In this document: positions 1 through 59,731 of the stretch, in pieces
Layout of the letters: each line of letters starts with the position of its first letter
How positions within the stretch are numbered: the first letter of the stretch is position 1
Origin: Phycisphaerae bacterium
Lineage (GTDB): Bacteria; Planctomycetota; Phycisphaerae; Sedimentisphaerales; UBA12454
Assembly (NCBI GenBank): GCA_026386845.1
Contig: JAPLMW010000039.1
Location: forward strand, 1-61,881
Reading direction: 5' to 3'
Length of the DNA: 61,881 nucleotides
The notes under the pieces: model-generated
Told to the model about the DNA's origin: nothing
The model's database searches: none
What the model saw: the letters and a program-made list of their open reading frames with translations, nothing else
Position numbers and translations under genes: made by a program

Positions 1-647
1 TGCTGGCTGTCGGCAAAAAGCCGATGATTTACTATCCCATTGAGAAACTTATTTCAGCGGGAATAGAGGAAATTCTCATCGTAACCGGCATCGACCATAT
101 GGGCGATGTAGTAAACCTGCTTGGTTCGGGGAAAAATTTTTCCTGCCGTTTTACTTACAAAGTCCAGGACCAGGCCGGCGGTATCGCCCAGGCGCTTGCC
201 CTTGCGGAAGATTTCGCAAAGAACAGCGGACTTGTAGCAATTCTCGGCGATAACATTTTCAAGGCTTCTTTAAAACCTTATCTGCAAAAATTTTCAAATC
301 AGAAAAAAGGAGCAAGAGTCCTGCTCAAACAGGTTGAAAACCCGCAGCGATTCGGCGTCGCTGAAATTGCGGACAATAAAGTAACTTCCATTATCGAAAA
401 ACCAAAAAATCCGAAAACAAATTATGCCGTAACAGGCATATATTTTTATGATAACACCGTCTTTGACATAATCAAAATATTAAAGCCTTCCGGCCGAGGC
501 GAACTTGAAATCACCGATGTCAATAACGCTTATATCAGCCGAAACCAGCTCGAATATGATATTCTTGCCGGCTGGTGGACGGACGCCGGAACATTTGAAT
601 CGCTTAACACTGCAAATGAATTAGTTATTAAGGAGCCTGTCGAATGA
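1..647 (+). CDS. rmlA: glucose-1-phosphate thymidylyltransferase-like sugar nucleotidyltransferase (5' end outside window)
   Basis: The frame is open from the window edge (LAVGKKPM...). Nucleotidyltransferase motifs GGIAQAL, ILGDNIF, EKPKNPK..YAVTGIYFY and GELEITD are present. It is the first gene of an rmlA-C-D-B cluster. Confidence 0.8.
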   Translation, partial: LAVGKKPMIYYPIEKLISAGIEEILIVTGIDHMGDVVNLLGSGKNFSCRFTYKVQDQAGGIAQALALAEDFAKNSGLVAILGDNIFKASLKPYLQKFSNQKKGARVLLKQVENPQRFGVAEIADNKVTSIIEKPKNPKTNYAVTGIYFYDNTVFDIIKILKPSGRGELEITDVNNAYISRNQLEYDILAGWWTDAGTFESLNTANELVIKEPVE

Positions 648-955
648 CAAGTCCCGTTAGACCTCTTTGGTTTTATACTTATGTTTTAATATGCGAAAAA
701 ACAGGGACACTCTATACTGGTTGTACCAAAAATTTAAGGCAGCGAATGGAACAACACACTAAAGGTTTGGTTTATTACACAAAATACAGATTACCGGTTA
801 AGTTAATTTATTCTGAGGCTTGTTTGAACAAAGATGATGCTTTTCGCAGGGAAAGATATTTAAAAACAGGAATGGGCAAAAGATATCTTAAAAATAGGTT
901 AAAAAGATGTCGGACGACCATAAATGCCTTATCTAAAGGAGGTCTAACGGGATGA
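644..955 (+). CDS. GIY-YIG nuclease family protein (COG2827/YhbQ-like, 103 aa)
   Basis: N-terminal FYTYVL..GTLYTG (GIY...YIG) followed by RRERYLK. The ATG overlaps the rmlA stop (ATGA 644-647) and the TGA overlaps the rmlC start (ATGA 952-955). Confidence 0.85.
   Translation: MTSPVRPLWFYTYVLICEKTGTLYTGCTKNLRQRMEQHTKGLVYYTKYRLPVKLIYSEACLNKDDAFRRERYLKTGMGKRYLKNRLKRCRTTINALSKGGLTG
644..955 (+). mobile_element. GIY-YIG cassette with 13-bp terminal inverted repeats and ATGA direct repeats
   Basis: CCCGTTAGACCTC (653-665) and GAGGTCTAACGGG (939-951) are perfect inverted repeats. ATGA occurs at both borders. Removing 648-955 restores an rmlA/rmlC ATGA overlap. Confidence 0.55.
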
Positions 956-1476
956 AAAAAATCGCGGAACTGAAAAGAGTTTTTTCTGAAGGTTCGATTA
1001 TCATTATAGGTTCAGCCGGCCTGATTGAAGGCGTCAAGGCAAAAACTGTAAAAATTCTTCCGGATGAACGAGGCAGGCTTGGCGAAATCCTGCGAGCAGA
1101 TGACGAAATGTTCGAAAAATTCGGCCAGGTTTACTTTACGACAACATATCCGGGAATGGTAAAAGCCTGGCATTGGCATAAAAAACAGACCGACTATTTC
1201 TATGTTGCCAAAGGCACGGTAAAAGTAGCCCTCTACGACCAAAGAGACGGTTCAAAAACCAAAGGCTCTGTCAACCAGATTTATATGAGCGAGCATTGTC
1301 CCGCCGTTTTAAGGATTCCGCCCGGCATCTGTCACGGCTGGATGTGTGTAAGCGCCGATGAAGCTTATATCATCAATATACCGACAGAATGTTACAATTA
1401 CAGTCAGCCGGATGAATTCAGAATCCATCCTCACGACAACGACATACCTTACGATTGGACGCGAAAAGATGGATAA
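952..1476 (+). CDS. rmlC: dTDP-4-dehydrorhamnose 3,5-epimerase family (RmlC-like cupin)
   Basis: Cupin motifs DERGRLGEI, WHWHKKQTDYFYV.KG and PPGICHGW. It lies between rmlA and rmlD. Confidence 0.7.
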   Translation: MKKIAELKRVFSEGSIIIIGSAGLIEGVKAKTVKILPDERGRLGEILRADDEMFEKFGQVYFTTTYPGMVKAWHWHKKQTDYFYVAKGTVKVALYDQRDGSKTKGSVNQIYMSEHCPAVLRIPPGICHGWMCVSADEAYIINIPTECYNYSQPDEFRIHPHDNDIPYDWTRKDG

Positions 1477-2323: not shown

Positions 2324-2431
2324 ATCCCGCACCTTCAAATATTCAAGTGATTTTGAAGAGCCGGAAGAATAATCGGATGGGAATATCAATAATATGAAAC
2401 GCAGATTAAAAGAATATAAAGAAGGTGCGGG
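2324..2431 (+). mobile_element. MITE-like element, family 2 (CCCGCACCTTC/GAAGGTGCGGG TIRs)
   Basis: 11-bp perfect TIRs at 2326-2336 and 2421-2431. Flanked by ATGAAT (2320-2325) and ATGAAA (2432-2437). A homologous copy is at 38164-38273. Confidence 0.65.
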
Positions 2432-3445
2432 ATGAAAAGGATTCTTGTTACAGGCGGCGCGGGCTTTATAGGCAGCAATTTTGTAAGATGGATTCTTACA
2501 GAGCAGCCTGATTGCTTCATTGTCAATCTCGACAAACTCACTTATGCCGGCAATCTCGAGAACCTCGAAGGCTTTCTCAAGCACCCCAACCATATCTTTG
2601 TCAAGGCAGACATAAATGACGGCAAAACAGTTGAGGAAATAATAGACAAACACAAAATTCAGACAATTATAAACTTCGCTGCCGAAAGTCACGTTGACCG
2701 TTCAATCACAGGTCCCAAAATTTTCATAGAAACCAACGTAACCGGCACGCTCACTCTGCTGCAGGCTGCCTGCGACAAAAAAATCGAACGCTTTATTCAG
2801 ATTTCAACCGATGAGGTTTACGGCCAGCTCGGCCCAACCGGCAAATTCACTGAACAAACTCCTCTATCTCCTAATTCGCCGTATTCAGCGAGCAAGGCGG
2901 CCGCAGACCTTCTTGTAAAAGCCTTTGGACATACGTGGGGGCTGAATTACAGCATAACTCGCTGTTCAAATAATTACGGCCCGTTCCAGTTCCCTGAAAA
3001 AATGATTCCACTGATGATAAACAACGCCCTCAATGACAAACCCCTGCCTGTTTACGGCGACGGCCTGCACGTCCGCGACTGGATACACGTCGAAGACCAC
3101 TGCAAAGCAATATGGAAGGTTCTTGCTGAAGGAAAGAGCGGCGAAACCTACAACATCGGCTCATCCTGCGAAAAGCAAAACATTGAAGTTGTAAAAACGA
3201 TATTGAAATTGCTCAAAAAACCCGAATCGCTCATAACGTTTGTCAAGGACCGTCCCGGCCACGATAAGCGATATGCGATGGACTCTTCAAAGATTAATTC
3301 GCAGCTTGGCTGGCAATCGCTGATAAATTTTGAAGATGGTTTAAAAAAGACAATAGACTGGTATCTGCAAAACAAAAAGTGGCTCAGCCGTATAACAAGC
3401 GGCCAGTATCAGCAATACTATCAGCAGATGTATGCCAATAGATAG
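2432..3445 (+). CDS. rmlB: dTDP-glucose 4,6-dehydratase
   Basis: MKRILVTGGAGFIGSNF, STDEVYG and YSASKAAAD (YxxxK). Length is 337 aa. Confidence 0.95.
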   Translation: MKRILVTGGAGFIGSNFVRWILTEQPDCFIVNLDKLTYAGNLENLEGFLKHPNHIFVKADINDGKTVEEIIDKHKIQTIINFAAESHVDRSITGPKIFIETNVTGTLTLLQAACDKKIERFIQISTDEVYGQLGPTGKFTEQTPLSPNSPYSASKAAADLLVKAFGHTWGLNYSITRCSNNYGPFQFPEKMIPLMINNALNDKPLPVYGDGLHVRDWIHVEDHCKAIWKVLAEGKSGETYNIGSSCEKQNIEVVKTILKLLKKPESLITFVKDRPGHDKRYAMDSSKINSQLGWQSLINFEDGLKKTIDWYLQNKKWLSRITSGQYQQYYQQMYANR

Positions 3446-14386: not shown

Positions 14387-14435
14387 TAATCGGTTAAAAA
14401 ATAGAATGAATAAAGGCCTAACTTAAGGGGGATGA

Positions 14436-14542
14436 ATCCCGTTAGACCTCTCTGGCTTACAAAGGTGTTCAAAGATATGGAAAGACATGTAAACTTTATA
14501 TTGTATAAATAACTTAAAAATAGGTTAGTGAGGTCTAACGGG
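14436..14542 (+). mobile_element. MITE-like deletion derivative of the GIY-YIG cassette (family 1)
   Basis: It has the same 13-bp TIRs (14438-14450 and 14530-14542). It shares the MNPVRPLW opening and the 15-nt CTTAAAAATAGGTTA (14513-14527, matching 887-901). It is flanked by ATGAA at 14432 and 14543. Confidence 0.65.
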
Positions 14543-14776
14543 ATGAAAAAATTACAAATACTCGGAACAGGCTGCCCCAAGTGCAAAAAACTTGCCGAAT
14601 TTGCTGAAACCGCAGCAAAAGAACTTGGTATTGAGTATGAAATTGAGAAAGTTACAAAGATTAATGATATAATGAAGTTCGGCGTTATGGTAACGCCCGC
14701 TCTTGTCGTTGATGGAAAAGTAAAAGTCGCCGGCAAAGTGCCTTCAATTGAAGAATTGAAGAATATGCTGAAATGA
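14543..14776 (+). CDS. thioredoxin-fold redox-active disulfide protein 2 family (77 aa)
   Basis: MKKLQILGTGCPKCKKL carries the CxxC motif. ATG 14543 is preferred over GTG 14528, which lies inside the repeat. Confidence 0.85.
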   Translation: MKKLQILGTGCPKCKKLAEFAETAAKELGIEYEIEKVTKINDIMKFGVMVTPALVVDGKVKVAGKVPSIEELKNMLK

Positions 14777-21562: not shown

Positions 21563-21642
21563 TTAGCCGTCGCCGGCACGGCGACGTGTCATTCCCGCGA
21601 AAGCGGGAATCCAGTATATTTAGCCGCCGGTTTTACCGGCGG
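21563..21642 (+). repeat. composite of TTAGCC-hairpin, GTCATT-hairpin-AATCCAG and TTAGCC-hairpin
   Basis: TTAGCCGTCGCCggcacGGCGACG, then GTCATTCCCGCGAAAGCGGGAATCCAG (21588-21614), then TTAGCCGCCGGTtttaACCGGCGG. Confidence 0.7.
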
Positions 21643-38052: not shown

Positions 38053-38163
38053 AGTGTCCCCTTTTTAATCTGGATTATCTTCTACGACAATGCTATTATT
38101 AAAATATAAAAATCCAAATTGTCAATAACTCATTAAAATAAGGATTTTAAAGAGAGCCGATGA

Positions 38164-38273
38164 ATCCCGCACCTTCAGATATTCAAATAATAATTTTGAA
38201 GGGTCGCAAGAGTAACCGGCTGAAGATACAATAATATGAAACATATATCAAAAGAATGTAAAGAAGGTGCGGG
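38164..38273 (+). mobile_element. MITE-like element, family 2 (second copy)
   Basis: TIRs CCCGCACCTTC (38166-38176) and GAAGGTGCGGG (38263-38273). Perfect ATGAAT direct repeats at 38160-38165 and 38274-38279. Confidence 0.65.
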
Positions 38274-39185
38274 ATGAATAAAATTCATCCCAATAGATTT
38301 TATCTCGAAGACTATAGGAAGAAACATCACAGATATTCGCGGGACGGTTTCTTCGGGAATCTGAAACGCATCCGCACCTGGTCGTCCCTGATACAGTTTA
38401 TACTGAGGGCGACAGGTCTTGAGCGGCGAGGCCTTGCCAACGCGATGAATATCAGAGTCAACCAGACAGTCGCAGAGTTTGATAATCTGCCGAGTGGTTT
38501 TGAGAACAGCCGCATACTCTTCATTTCTGACTTTCATATCGAACTTATGGCCGGCCTCGTCGATAAAATAATCGAGCTGATAAAAAATCTCGAATATGAC
38601 TACTGTTTTCTCGGCGGCGATTACAGTACCTTCGACAAATTCGATATGGACAAGACAAAACAGGGAATGAAAAAAATTGCGGAACATCTCAAAACCAATC
38701 GGACTTACGGAGTAATCGGCAATCATGATTATTACGAAACGGCCGTCTTTCTTCAAAGTCTCGGCGTAACAATGCTCATAAATGAAAATACAGTGATTGA
38801 ACGCGATGGCGCAGCGATTTATCTTGCAGGCGTCGATGACGGCTATATTTTTGATTCAGCCGATATAGGCCGGGCATCTGCCGGCATTCCGGCAGGAGCT
38901 TTTAAAATTCTCCTGTCGCACAGCCCGCAGATTTACAGGCAGGCCCAGAAGGCGGGTTTTAACTTTTTTATGGCCGGCCATACACACGGCGGCCAGATTT
39001 GTCTGCCGGGCGGAATACCATTATTCAAGTCCGCTAAGGCACCGGGAAAAATCGCAAAAGGCCTGTGGCAATATAAAACCATGACCGGTTTTACGTCCAC
39101 CGGCGCCGGCTGCTGTAATGCCGCGGCAAGGTTCTTTTGCCCGCCGGAAATCGCTGTTTTGACCCTCAAAATGAAAAAATCATAG
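38274..39185 (+). CDS. metallophosphoesterase
   Basis: SDFH, GGDY, GNHDYYE and AGHTHGGQ motifs. Confidence 0.85.
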   Translation: MNKIHPNRFYLEDYRKKHHRYSRDGFFGNLKRIRTWSSLIQFILRATGLERRGLANAMNIRVNQTVAEFDNLPSGFENSRILFISDFHIELMAGLVDKIIELIKNLEYDYCFLGGDYSTFDKFDMDKTKQGMKKIAEHLKTNRTYGVIGNHDYYETAVFLQSLGVTMLINENTVIERDGAAIYLAGVDDGYIFDSADIGRASAGIPAGAFKILLSHSPQIYRQAQKAGFNFFMAGHTHGGQICLPGGIPLFKSAKAPGKIAKGLWQYKTMTGFTSTGAGCCNAAARFFCPPEIAVLTLKMKKS

Positions 39186-50577: not shown

Positions 50578-50663
50578 AAACAGTATCAACTTTCAAAATG
50601 AGGAATAAACCCTGAAATTATAACTACATTCCTTCCCGACGCCACAAAATTTTGTCTGGTGTA

Positions 50664-51085
50664 GTCATTTCGAGCGGAGGCCTCGAAGAGGCCGAAGCCG
50701 AGAAATCTATTAAAAAACGTTCTTTACGAATATTATTCATACCAGCCATCGCTTAAGTCTTTCCAGTCGGGATTCATCGAGTCAATAATCGCAACCTTTT
50801 TCTCCCGTCTCCATTTTTTGATTTGTTTTTCCCGACTAATGGCTGAAATCGGGTCTGATACCCTTTCTACATAAAGTAATCGGTCAATATTGTATTTATT
50901 TGTGAAACCCGGCATTAGATGATTTTTATGCTGATAAACCCTTTTTTTAATGTCATTAGTCATTCCGATATATAAAGTGCCGGTTTTGCTTGACATTATG
51001 TAAACATAATAGTTTTTCATAATCAAATTTTTTAATAGATTTCTCCACTCCGCTCCCCCTAAGGGGTCGCTTCGGTCGAAATGAC
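50664..51085 (-). mobile_element. GIY-YIG gene flanked by 54-58-nt terminal inverted repeats
   Basis: Left arm: GTCATTTCGA...GAGAAATCTATTAAAAAA (50664-50717). Right arm, inverted: TTTTTTAATAGATTTCTC...TCGAAATGAC (51028-51085). Confidence 0.55.
50733..51020 (-). CDS. GIY-YIG nuclease family protein (COG2827-like)
   Basis: YYVYIM..GTLYIGMT followed by SREKQIKKW. ATG 51020 is preferred over TTG 51026. Confidence 0.85.
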   Translation of the reverse strand: MKNYYVYIMSSKTGTLYIGMTNDIKKRVYQHKNHLMPGFTNKYNIDRLLYVERVSDPISAISREKQIKKWRREKKVAIIDSMNPDWKDLSDGWYE

Positions 51086-58982: not shown

Positions 58983-59588
58983 CTATTCCAGCTCGCATCT
59001 GCCGAGGATTGCATCGGTTAGGACTGCGCCGCCGGCGTATTCAATCTGGCTTCCGCCGGGAAGACCCCTTGCAAGACGGGTAACCTTTATGCCCAAAGGC
59101 TTTATCAGCGAACCGATATACAAAGCTGTGCCGTCGCCTTCAACGGTTGGGTTTGTCGCCATTACAACTTCAGTAATTTTTTCGCTGCGAAGACGGCTCA
59201 ATAAATGTTCGATTGTCAAATCTTCCGGCTCGATATTTTCCAGCGGTGCGATATGCCCGCCGAGAACGTGATAGACCCATTTGCAAAGTCCGGTCTTTTC
59301 CAAAGCGATAAGGTCTTGGAACTGCTCGACAACGCAAATAATACTTTTATCGCGCCTGTCGTCTGTGCAAATCGAGCACAAATCTCCCTCTGAAAGATTG
59401 TGGCATTGTTTGCATTGACGAATACTGCTTTTTAATTTCATTATCGCATCGGCAAGAGCAATGGCTTCGTTTTTGTCAGCTTTCAATATATGAAAAGCAA
59501 GCCTCTCAGCCGTCTTGGGTCCTATCCCCGGCAGCTTTGCCAGTTCTTCTATCAGTTTATTCAAACTTTGTGTATATGCCGAATTCAT
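58983..59588 (-). CDS. recR: recombination protein RecR
   Basis: HhH motif, a Cys4 finger (CKQCHNLSEGDLCSIC) and a Toprim domain. ATG 59588 is preferred over TTG 59603. Confidence 0.95.
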   Translation of the reverse strand: MNSAYTQSLNKLIEELAKLPGIGPKTAERLAFHILKADKNEAIALADAIMKLKSSIRQCKQCHNLSEGDLCSICTDDRRDKSIICVVEQFQDLIALEKTGLCKWVYHVLGGHIAPLENIEPEDLTIEHLLSRLRSEKITEVVMATNPTVEGDGTALYIGSLIKPLGIKVTRLARGLPGGSQIEYAGGAVLTDAILGRCELE

Positions 59589-59680
59589 CCCGCACCTATT
59601 CAATATTCAATTACATCCGCCCCGCAGCACGTTGCAGCGGGGTTCTATTCAACTTTATATATAATAAATAGGTGCGGTGG
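59589..59680 (-). mobile_element. MITE-like element (variant TIR CCGCACCTAT/ATAGGTGCGG) at the recR start codon
   Basis: The minus strand reads ATGAA-CCACCGCACCTAT...ATAGGTGCGGG-ATGAAT(recR). The ATGAA direct repeats are at 59685-59681 and 59588-59584. Confidence 0.55.
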
Positions 59681-59685
59681 TTCAT

Positions 59686-59731
59686 CCCACACCTTCTTTC
59701 TATTCTTATTTTATCGCTTTTTCAAAATAAT
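59686..59731 (-). mobile_element. 3' half of a family-2 MITE fused to the end of the HNH-AP2 gene
   Basis: The minus strand reads ATTATTTTGAAAAAGCGATAAAATAAGAATAGAAAGAAGGTGTGGG. This aligns with the last ~46 nt of the elements at 2324-2431 and 38164-38273. Confidence 0.5.

Follow-up and report, generated by a model that had tools for sequence, protein, structure and literature searches.

A probable DNA transposable element of about 300 bp with an Ssn-like GIY-YIG nuclease as its only gene

Introduction

Small single-domain GIY-YIG proteins of the Ssn group (cd10448) have been described that bind hairpin repeats (NTS/SRM) and recognize these repeats as single-stranded DNA (ssDNA) only (Chenal et al., Nat Commun 2025, PMC11893778). 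It has been reported that these enzymes cut a few nucleotides 5' of the hairpin, that cutting is governed by the three bases immediately before the palindrome, and that cleavage persists when the two halves of the stem are located on separate strands (PMC11893778). The ssn genes are usually flanked by NTS/SRM hairpins, a layout which the authors call identical to that of an insertion sequence (IS), although mobility was not shown (PMC11893778). In a 2006 phylogenomic survey of GIY-YIG proteins, the bacterial stand-alone Slx1-like proteins had been taken as vertically inherited repair enzymes. In this study, we analysed a 61,881-nt stretch of DNA from Phycisphaerae bacterium (assembly GCA_026386845.1, contig JAPLMW010000039.1, forward strand), referred to here as the window, in which a small GIY-YIG gene is found between rmlA and rmlC. 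We consider it probable that the segment from T652 to A952 represents one copy of a DNA transposable element of very small size, whose only gene codes for a UPF0213/Slx1/Ssn-like GIY-YIG nuclease that would be its mobility enzyme.

Three further kinds of element invite comparison. Members of the IS200/IS605 family use an HUH tyrosine (Y1) transposase that forms covalent intermediates; they have a subterminal hairpin at each end and insert 3' of a tetranucleotide without target duplication. Bacterial miniature inverted-repeat transposable elements (MITEs), such as the Neisseria Correia elements and the Rickettsia palindromic elements, are palindromic and 60-130 bp long, carry terminal inverted repeats as well as short duplications, and are tolerated near or in genes. 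The free-standing GIY-YIG homing genes of phages (T4 seg/mob type) encode extra DNA-binding domains and have one cognate site, and they lack inverted repeats, duplications and miniatures.

The element at the rmlA/rmlC junction

The locus contains the following features.

24..647, + strand: 3' part of rmlA (glucose-1-phosphate thymidylyltransferase), from the list of open reading frames (ORFs); Pfam NTP_transferase, E 3e-46
644..955, + strand: GIY-YIG nuclease ORF, 103 aa; Pfam GIY-YIG PF01541, E 6e-13
652..952, + strand: probable mobile element proper, family A, 301 bp, from terminal T652 to terminal A952
652..665, + strand: left terminal inverted repeat TCCCGTTAGACCTC, coding for nuclease residues (S)PVRP
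939..952, + strand: right terminal inverted repeat GAGGTCTAACGGGA, coding for GLTG
953..956, + strand: right 4-bp target duplication TGAA, with the register taken from family statistics
952..1476, + strand: rmlC (dTDP-4-dehydrorhamnose 3,5-epimerase), with a start codon made up of element base A952 and TG of the duplication

A first-pass annotation, made from the sequence alone, had described a GIY-YIG ORF at 644-955, ATGA overlaps with the rmlA stop and the rmlC start, 13-bp inverted repeats and a GGAGG motif at 938-942, and all of these were located exactly there. The rmlA stop codon (TGA, 645-647) falls within ATGA 644-647, and the ATG of the nuclease ORF (644-646) is host-derived flank. 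On the other side ATGA 952-955 overlaps the rmlC start, the nuclease stop codon (TGA, 953-955) lies within the right copy of the target duplication, and the right repeat carries GGAGG as the Shine-Dalgarno (SD) sequence of rmlC, to whose start codon the element also gives A952. The 13-mer CCCGTTAGACCTC at 653-665 has its reverse complement at 939-951; as T652 pairs with A952, the repeat is 14 bp rather than 13 bp long. It had also been proposed that the inserted unit measures 308 bp and is accompanied by a duplication of ATGA. This has to be revised, as the family data give 301 bp (T652-A952) plus a 4-bp flanking duplication; when compared with the empty site in the related locus L175 (loci from other genomes are given L numbers), the net additional DNA amounts to 305 bp, i.e. 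301 + 4.

With up to two mismatches allowed, four occurrences of the 13-mer were counted in the window, where 0.56 would be expected, and since a count of four was not reached in any of 100 shuffles, the repeats are not due to chance. The G+C content is 35% in the rmlA/rmlC unit versus 43-44% in the flanking genes. When folded as ssDNA, the full-length element is not significantly more stable than shuffled sequences (z -1.6) and only the terminal stem stands out. An Rfam scan of positions 500-1100 returned no RNA family, and an intron- or ribozyme-like reading was dropped on this basis.

Empty and filled sites in related genomes

The rmlA/rmlC insertion is also present in the closest relative, L001, which shows 86% nucleotide identity over 3 kb. 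It had been anticipated that relatives would have empty ATGA junctions at this position, and these were found in the syntenic loci L171-L177, L181 and L182 (~79% nucleotide identity), where rmlA and rmlC overlap by 4 bp. The junction reads …ATGAC[A/G]AAAAAAATCGC in L171-L177 and L182, giving an RmlC that begins with MTKKIAEL, and ccgcaATGAAAAAAATTGCAG in L181, giving MKKIAEL; with the latter, the empty junction …GAATGAAAAAAAT… that had been predicted by removing the unit from the window exists in nature. Two further sites gave the same kind of result. The rmlD/rmlB junction is filled in the window, L001, L171 and L175 and empty, with a 4-bp ATGA overlap, in L178-L180. The start of a thioredoxin-like gene is filled in the window and in L091 and empty at the syntenic sites in L092, L094 and L096. 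In L093 and L095 (~1390-1500) a miniature of a second repeat family, family B, occupies the very start codon at which the window has a family A copy, which is an independent, repeated use of one site.

These data bear on the idea that the GIY-YIG gene is a resident gene of the operon, the paired ends of which form a host regulatory device, for example an mRNA stem hiding the rmlC SD sequence until the upstream ORF has been translated. The stem would indeed sequester GGAGG 938-942, and the insertion has been kept in two lineages that are 86% identical. However, the empty sites in close relatives largely refute this idea, and the unrelated host genes at other copies, the spread across phyla, the low G+C content and the target duplications also speak against it, so that we regard it as exceedingly unlikely. 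An effect on the RNA level could be a side benefit, without explaining the origin of the element.

Target duplication and landing site

The 4-mers that flank the element on its two sides are identical in 44 of 60 element calls, mostly as TGAA or TGAG, and in 0 of 60 when any of seven shifted registers is used. The use of TGAA or TGAG on one side covaries with that on the other (29/0/2/8, Fisher p 7e-7), and further matched pairs are TTAA, TTTA, CACG, CTCA and TTCA, as well as TTGA in L063. In L074 a miniature is nested in another copy; without the miniature and one TTTA the sequence becomes TTTTATGTTTATGTGCTG, which reads FYVYVL and fits the conserved WFYxYVL motif. The duplicated target is thus TGAA or TGAG and not ATGA as first suggested, with the first base of the regenerated start codon coming from the last base of the element.

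The suggestion that the element lands on ATGA overlaps holds for some of the copies: in 16 of the 43 full copies the upstream ORF ends in the TGA of the left duplication, creating a stop/start overlap. The usual landing site, however, is a gene start, mostly ATGAA or ATGAG with the insertion in the first bases of the gene (A/TGAA). The host start codon is formed by the preceding base and TG in 32 of the 43 full copies, and in 34 of them the start codon that follows the element opens an ORF of at least 50 codons. The reconstructed target of the planctomycete-type copies has an A before TGAA in 95% of cases and a G-rich stretch 8-12 nt upstream, and thereby looks like a normal start-codon context. 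In all 22 planctomycete-type full copies the nuclease gene has the same orientation as the host gene.

Spread of the family and covariation of its ends

Using one genome per species, we found 476 loci in contigs from many phyla, among them Planctomycetota, Omnitrophota, Nitrospirota, Desulfobacterota, Acidobacteriota, Patescibacteria and Bacteroidota. The surroundings differ from locus to locus. In L002, for example, the order is helicase, GIY-YIG, DUF1156 methylase, GIY-YIG, with the start of each GIY-YIG gene overlapping the end of the upstream gene by 4 bp, and in L183, which carries a second nuclease subfamily, it is response regulator, GIY-YIG, polyprenyl synthase. Nearly all copies begin with [T/C]CCCGTTAGAnnn at the left and end with its complement at the right. 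Among 59 non-redundant elements the outermost pair is T/A (35) or C/G (22), i.e. 97% together, and three or four types of compensating pairs are seen at positions 10-12, so that the arms remain complementary through compensatory changes across phyla. Complementarity drops to 3-10% two to three bases outside the outermost pair and is at chance level beyond position 13. The outer pair also fixes the downstream start codon, which is ATG in T/A copies and GTG in C/G copies. Pairing in mRNA was considered as the force that keeps the stem and was rejected: since the few mismatches (C·A, A·G) are not wobble-biased and the characterized Ssn enzymes are inactive on RNA, pairing in DNA is favoured.

The view that the locus contains a minimal mobile cassette is therefore borne out by other copies that keep repeats and flanks (at least four more in the window and dozens in other genomes), by empty junctions, and by repeats that are conserved and covary across phyla. 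In plasmid and phage collections, a tblastn search with the nuclease as query (E 1e-8) gave no match and identified no vector for the spread.

The encoded nuclease

The 103-aa protein contains all residues that are invariant in the family alignment, including Y13, Y24, G26, H38 and E58. The Pfam GIY-YIG domain spans residues 10-76 and is overlapped by a borderline T5orf172 match (20.4 bits versus a cut-off of 20); no further domain, and in particular no HUH domain, was detected with Pfam. The AlphaFold2 (AF2) model (pLDDT 79) shows a compact GIY-YIG core with a UPF0213/Slx1-like fold. The best structure and sequence matches are the UPF0213 proteins 1zg2 and 1ywl, followed by Slx1, while UvrC and I-TevI match much more weakly. 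No DDE, HUH, serine or tyrosine transposase is encoded, the GIY-YIG nuclease being the only ORF in the element.

Most of the 744 relatives of the nuclease found at E < 1e-5 start with MNPVRP and end with GGLTG; therefore the repeats are coding sequence. A profile search with E up to 1e-10 gave 2,639 clusters (50% identity). In the cluster representatives P0251, P0263 and P0357 (350-655 aa) the nuclease domain forms one portion of the protein, possibly fused to a host gene product through read-through at the insertion site. A second nuclease subfamily, MNPAP…GGAG/EGAG, is 46% identical to the first and has its own repeats, CCAGC[A/C]CCTC and GAGG[T/G]GCTGG. Flanks of the form ATGAA-C…G-TGAA and overlaps of 4 bp are found in this subfamily as well (e.g. 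L183 and L184), and the family B miniatures of the window match its EGAG variant. Nuclease and repeat evolve together.

Since GIY-YIG is the classic homing-endonuclease fold, it could be argued that the nuclease gene is a free-standing homing endonuclease gene, which cuts the empty ATGA junction and is copied by homologous repair between related genomes, without any transposition. The comparison with the closest relative fits such lateral replacement by recombination: the element (652-952) is 97.3% identical to L001 3009-3309, whereas identity is 81% for rmlA and 92% for rmlC. As in the T4 seg/mob type, the GIY-YIG gene also sits between conserved genes without disrupting them. However, copies are present at many non-homologous sites, inverted repeats and target duplications are not products of homing, and gene-less miniatures have spread. 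In addition, and unlike GIY-YIG homing endonucleases, the protein has one domain (103 aa) and dozens of different insertion sites, with no DNA-binding domain beyond a core of 90-100 aa; its sole NCBIfam match, to the group I intron endonuclease family TIGR01453, is below threshold (18 bits versus a cut-off of 56). Homing alone is therefore very unlikely in our view. For a transposable element, the identity values would suggest either that lateral replacement by recombination has occurred at the rmlA/rmlC locus in addition to transposition or, alternatively, that the elements of the window and L001 have a more recent common origin than their flanks.

Effect of the insertion on translation

The planctomycete-type copies have neither a start nor a stop codon of their own, and there is no methionine before the WFYTY motif. 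Their nuclease ORF is presumably read from the SD sequence and ATG of the host and ends at the TGA of the right duplication. Codon 2 of this ORF consists of two duplicated bases and the first element base. At the other end, the right repeat provides GGAGG 9 nt before the rebuilt start codon, and the last element base (A or G) together with the duplicated TG rebuilds the host ATG or GTG; by this means the operon stays translatable. Copies from the candidate phyla radiation that lie away from an ATG contain an internal methionine of their own (…NPVRDxxxMFYTY…).

Other elements in the window

The 62-kb window contains at least five elements. The four found besides the rmlA/rmlC copy are all gene-less miniatures.

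2325..2432, + strand: family B miniature with repeats TCCCGCACCTTC and GAAGGTGCGGGA, exactly on the rmlD stop and rmlB start
14437..14543, + strand: internally deleted family A miniature of 107 bp, bounded by the remaining two 13-mer matches
38165..38274, + strand: second family B miniature, before ORF 38274..39185, with TGAA at 38161-38164 and 38275-38278
59588..59700, - strand: degenerate tandem cluster before the recR start (ATG at 59589, minus strand)

A generic scan for TGAR-Y-arm…arm'-R-TGAR gave three perfect cases in the window versus 0.03 in shuffles. The rmlD/rmlB miniature is flanked by TGAA at 2321-2324 and 2433-2436. The family A miniature, which has the layout ggATGAA-T-CCCGTTAGACCTC…GAGGTCTAACGGG-A-TGAAaaa and is flanked by TGAA at 14433-14436 and 14544-14547, is placed at the start of an ArsE/MTH895-type thioredoxin-like gene, with the SD/ATG (14432-14434) of this gene on its left and the regenerated ATG (14543) on its right. 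Of the full element, it retains about 20 nt at either end, while the gene is missing, and it is for this reason considered a miniature derivative. As ssDNA both of its strands fold, with a 15-bp terminal stem and z values of -4.9 and -5.8. The recR cluster is composed of a 92-bp miniature (repeats CCGCACCTATT/AATAGGTGCGG) and a solo family B right end.

Head-to-tail arrays of miniatures plus a full copy, joined by common ATGAAT junctions, were seen in L013 (1193-1885) and L023 (531-749); one L013 unit includes an assembly gap, so that part of this array may be an artefact. Tandem arrays (L013, L023 and the cluster at 59.6 kb of the window) build up because each insertion recreates ATGAA on both sides. 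At the thioredoxin-like gene, the empty spacer of L094 and L096 (~1400-1490) holds a different long perfect palindrome, gccacaaagacac…gtgtcttcgtggc, which is another repeat class in the same gap.

Comparison with described systems

Searching the literature, we found no description of an element of this type with target duplications, empty sites and start-codon capture, in line with the first-pass view that no such mobility mode had been described; the closest report is the 2025 Ssn paper, with the caveat of its remark, made without showing mobility, on the IS-like layout. The likeness to Ssn is clear: in both, a small single-domain GIY-YIG protein (~94 aa in Ssn) is encoded by a gene that lies between inverted repeats, every nuclease lineage is paired with a cognate repeat, and the NTS, which starts GTCAT-TCCCGCG, closely resembles the bottom strand of the right end of the element, which starts TTCAT-CCCGTTA. 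There are also differences. In the Ssn systems each flank is a self-contained hairpin of 20-50 nt outside the gene, whereas in the element one stem is split into two 14-bp halves inside the coding sequence and the whole gene forms the loop. The SRM pattern HGTCWY…RNCYNB has two matches in the window (8409 and 21587) and none at 600-1000, so the element ends are not matched by it. Finally, the target duplications, empty sites, start-codon capture, SD/start rebuilding and gene-start miniatures documented here are not reported for Ssn. The elements are best classified among the Ssn-type GIY-YIG/repeat modules, as a new variant that is mobile.

With IS200/IS605 and REP/RAYT elements the family shares the very small size, DNA secondary structure at the ends in place of long protein-bound repeats, tetranucleotide insertion points, the fixed orientation and swarms of short palindromic derivatives. 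A right tetranucleotide that is carried along in an IS200/IS605-like manner is conceivable but less likely. Unlike in IS200/IS605, however, the enzyme is of the GIY-YIG type, the ends pair with each other, and the flanking 4-mers covary like a true duplication. The classical features of an IS or a MITE, namely conserved terminal inverted repeats, a fixed 4-bp duplication and insertion at unrelated loci with orthologous empty sites, are all seen. In contrast to MITEs, an autonomous parent has been identified and is itself only ~270-300 bp long, and insertion is aimed at start codons with restoration of the translation signals. An 81-bp miniature in L002 (2117-2197, arms CCCGTTAGAGAA) lies inside an SNF2/ResIII helicase gene, and the gene caller reads through it. 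This miniature, which has inverted rather than direct flanks (TTCA…TGAA), is called as part of the helicase ORF just as the Rickettsia palindromic elements are, and may be translated in frame like these.

A model for movement and its alternatives

While the inverted repeats, the 4-bp duplication, the target preference, the fixed orientation, the miniatures and the empty and filled sites can be read from the sequences, we infer that the encoded nuclease is the mobility enzyme of the element. By analogy with the Ssn nucleases, it would recognize the stem of the paired terminal repeats in single-stranded or extruded DNA and cut a few nucleotides outside the stem, i.e. in TGAA, and host ligase and polymerase would complete the joining. 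In a hydrolytic cut-and-ligate scheme, both junctions would be cut in a staggered way, 5' of TGAA in the top strand and 5' of TTCA in the bottom strand. This would free the element with non-palindromic 4-nt 5' overhangs, and the donor could be resealed precisely. A target cut in the same manner would accept the element in one orientation only and end up with TGAA on both sides; the fixed orientation would thus be explained by the non-palindromic overhangs. As an alternative, staggered nicks may be followed by fill-in. Fill-in would fit the varied perfect duplications better than cut-and-ligate, and we make no choice between the two.

It is also conceivable that the cassettes are mobile but that the GIY-YIG protein is not their transposase. 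The repeats would then serve another job, such as restricting single-stranded DNA that enters the cell, which has been shown for Neisseria SsnA, and a host recombinase or recombination/repair would move them. The role demonstrated for SsnA is the modulation of transformation and not transposition, GIY-YIG enzymes are without known strand-transfer activity, and miniatures outnumber autonomous copies in the window by 4 to 1. On the other hand, every full copy has the nuclease as the sole ORF between its repeats, each of the two nuclease subfamilies comes with a repeat sequence of its own, no candidate transposase was seen beside those copies whose gene tables were read, and a regular 4-bp duplication with fixed orientation indicates one dedicated mechanism. 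We therefore judge this alternative to be unlikely, although it deserves to be kept in mind.

Several observations weigh against the proposal that T652-A952 is a transposable element moved by its own nuclease. To our knowledge, GIY-YIG enzymes are hydrolytic and have no strand-transfer activity, which leaves the joining step unexplained. At the rmlA/rmlC copy itself the left counterpart of the duplication (648-651) reads CAAG and has diverged from TGAA, and the left junction, ATGACAAG/T, is atypical with respect to the family consensus ATGAA/T and contains an extra codon. Furthermore, the relatives have two kinds of empty site, ATGACAAAAAAAAT and ATGAAAAAAAT, because of which the original target is not uniquely reconstructable. 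Ancestral-target scenarios that start from TGAA of the MKK type, TGAC of the MTKK type or CAAA of the MTKK type were tried and set aside, as each needs several later changes. In the non-planctomycete subfamilies the duplication is perfect in only 12 of 21 copies, and at several of the candidate-phyla-radiation loci L059, L065-L068, L073 and L075 the copy is flanked by TTTA at one end and by TGAA or TAAA at the opposite end instead of a direct duplication; such TTTA…TGAA flanks are left unexplained by the simple model. In L068 and L073 the nuclease is oriented opposite to the TTTA/TGAA-type flanks. It should also be noted that the elements were selected with at most one mismatch between the arms, which inflates the complementarity at positions 1-13; the outermost pair (position 0) was not part of this filter. 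Lastly, full copies from different sites never exceed 89% identity to one another in the genomes sampled; movement is therefore historical and rare, and no recent event was captured.

These elements may well represent a new class of transposon. We would give even odds to the more far-reaching proposal that they are the smallest autonomous prokaryotic transposable elements (~268-301 bp, with one protein of 89-103 aa) and form a new class, in which a hydrolytic Ssn-type GIY-YIG transposase recognizes the stem made by the element's own ends and acts by cut-and-ligate at TGAA, and in which the gene is completed by landing on a host start codon that the element then rebuilds. If the nuclease is the mobility enzyme, it would constitute a fifth catalytic class of prokaryotic transposases, and the minimum size of an autonomous mobile element would be lowered. 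The family would provide a concrete evolutionary reason for the thousands of unexplained small genes annotated as "GIY-YIG nuclease family protein" in Planctomycetota, Omnitrophota, the candidate phyla radiation and others, and lets the speculation on an IS-like layout in the Ssn paper be put as testable predictions on cut positions. The element also illustrates how a parasite can settle in densely packed operons with translational coupling while costing the host almost nothing. For genome annotation, such insertions account for spurious short leader ORFs and fusion proteins at these sites, for GTG starts and for variation at the N-terminus (RmlC MTKK versus MKK), and a compact, orientation-fixed cassette that preserves translation, together with its sequence-specific nuclease, could be developed into tools.

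Ssn-like hairpin loci elsewhere in the window

A third GIY-YIG gene of the window (50733-51026, minus strand; MKNYYVYIMSS…) lies between imperfect inverted copies of a hairpin repeat of ~45 nt, GTCATTTCGA…GAGAAATCT, located at 51038-51085 and 50663-50708. The strict SRM pattern does not match these copies; by its arrangement, the locus (50663-51085) looks like the canonical SRM-ssn-SRM layout. In a profile comparison by hhalign, the family profile of the element nuclease matched this hairpin-flanked protein with a probability of 96% and 37% identity. A second sequence of this kind, TGTCATTCCCGCGAAAGCGGGAATCCAG at 21587-21614, is found in an argD/argF-like intergenic region between two other G+C-rich hairpins. 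Only its first base differs from the Neisseria NTS consensus, and its match to the published SRM pattern is complete, which is surprising in a Phycisphaerae-like genome.

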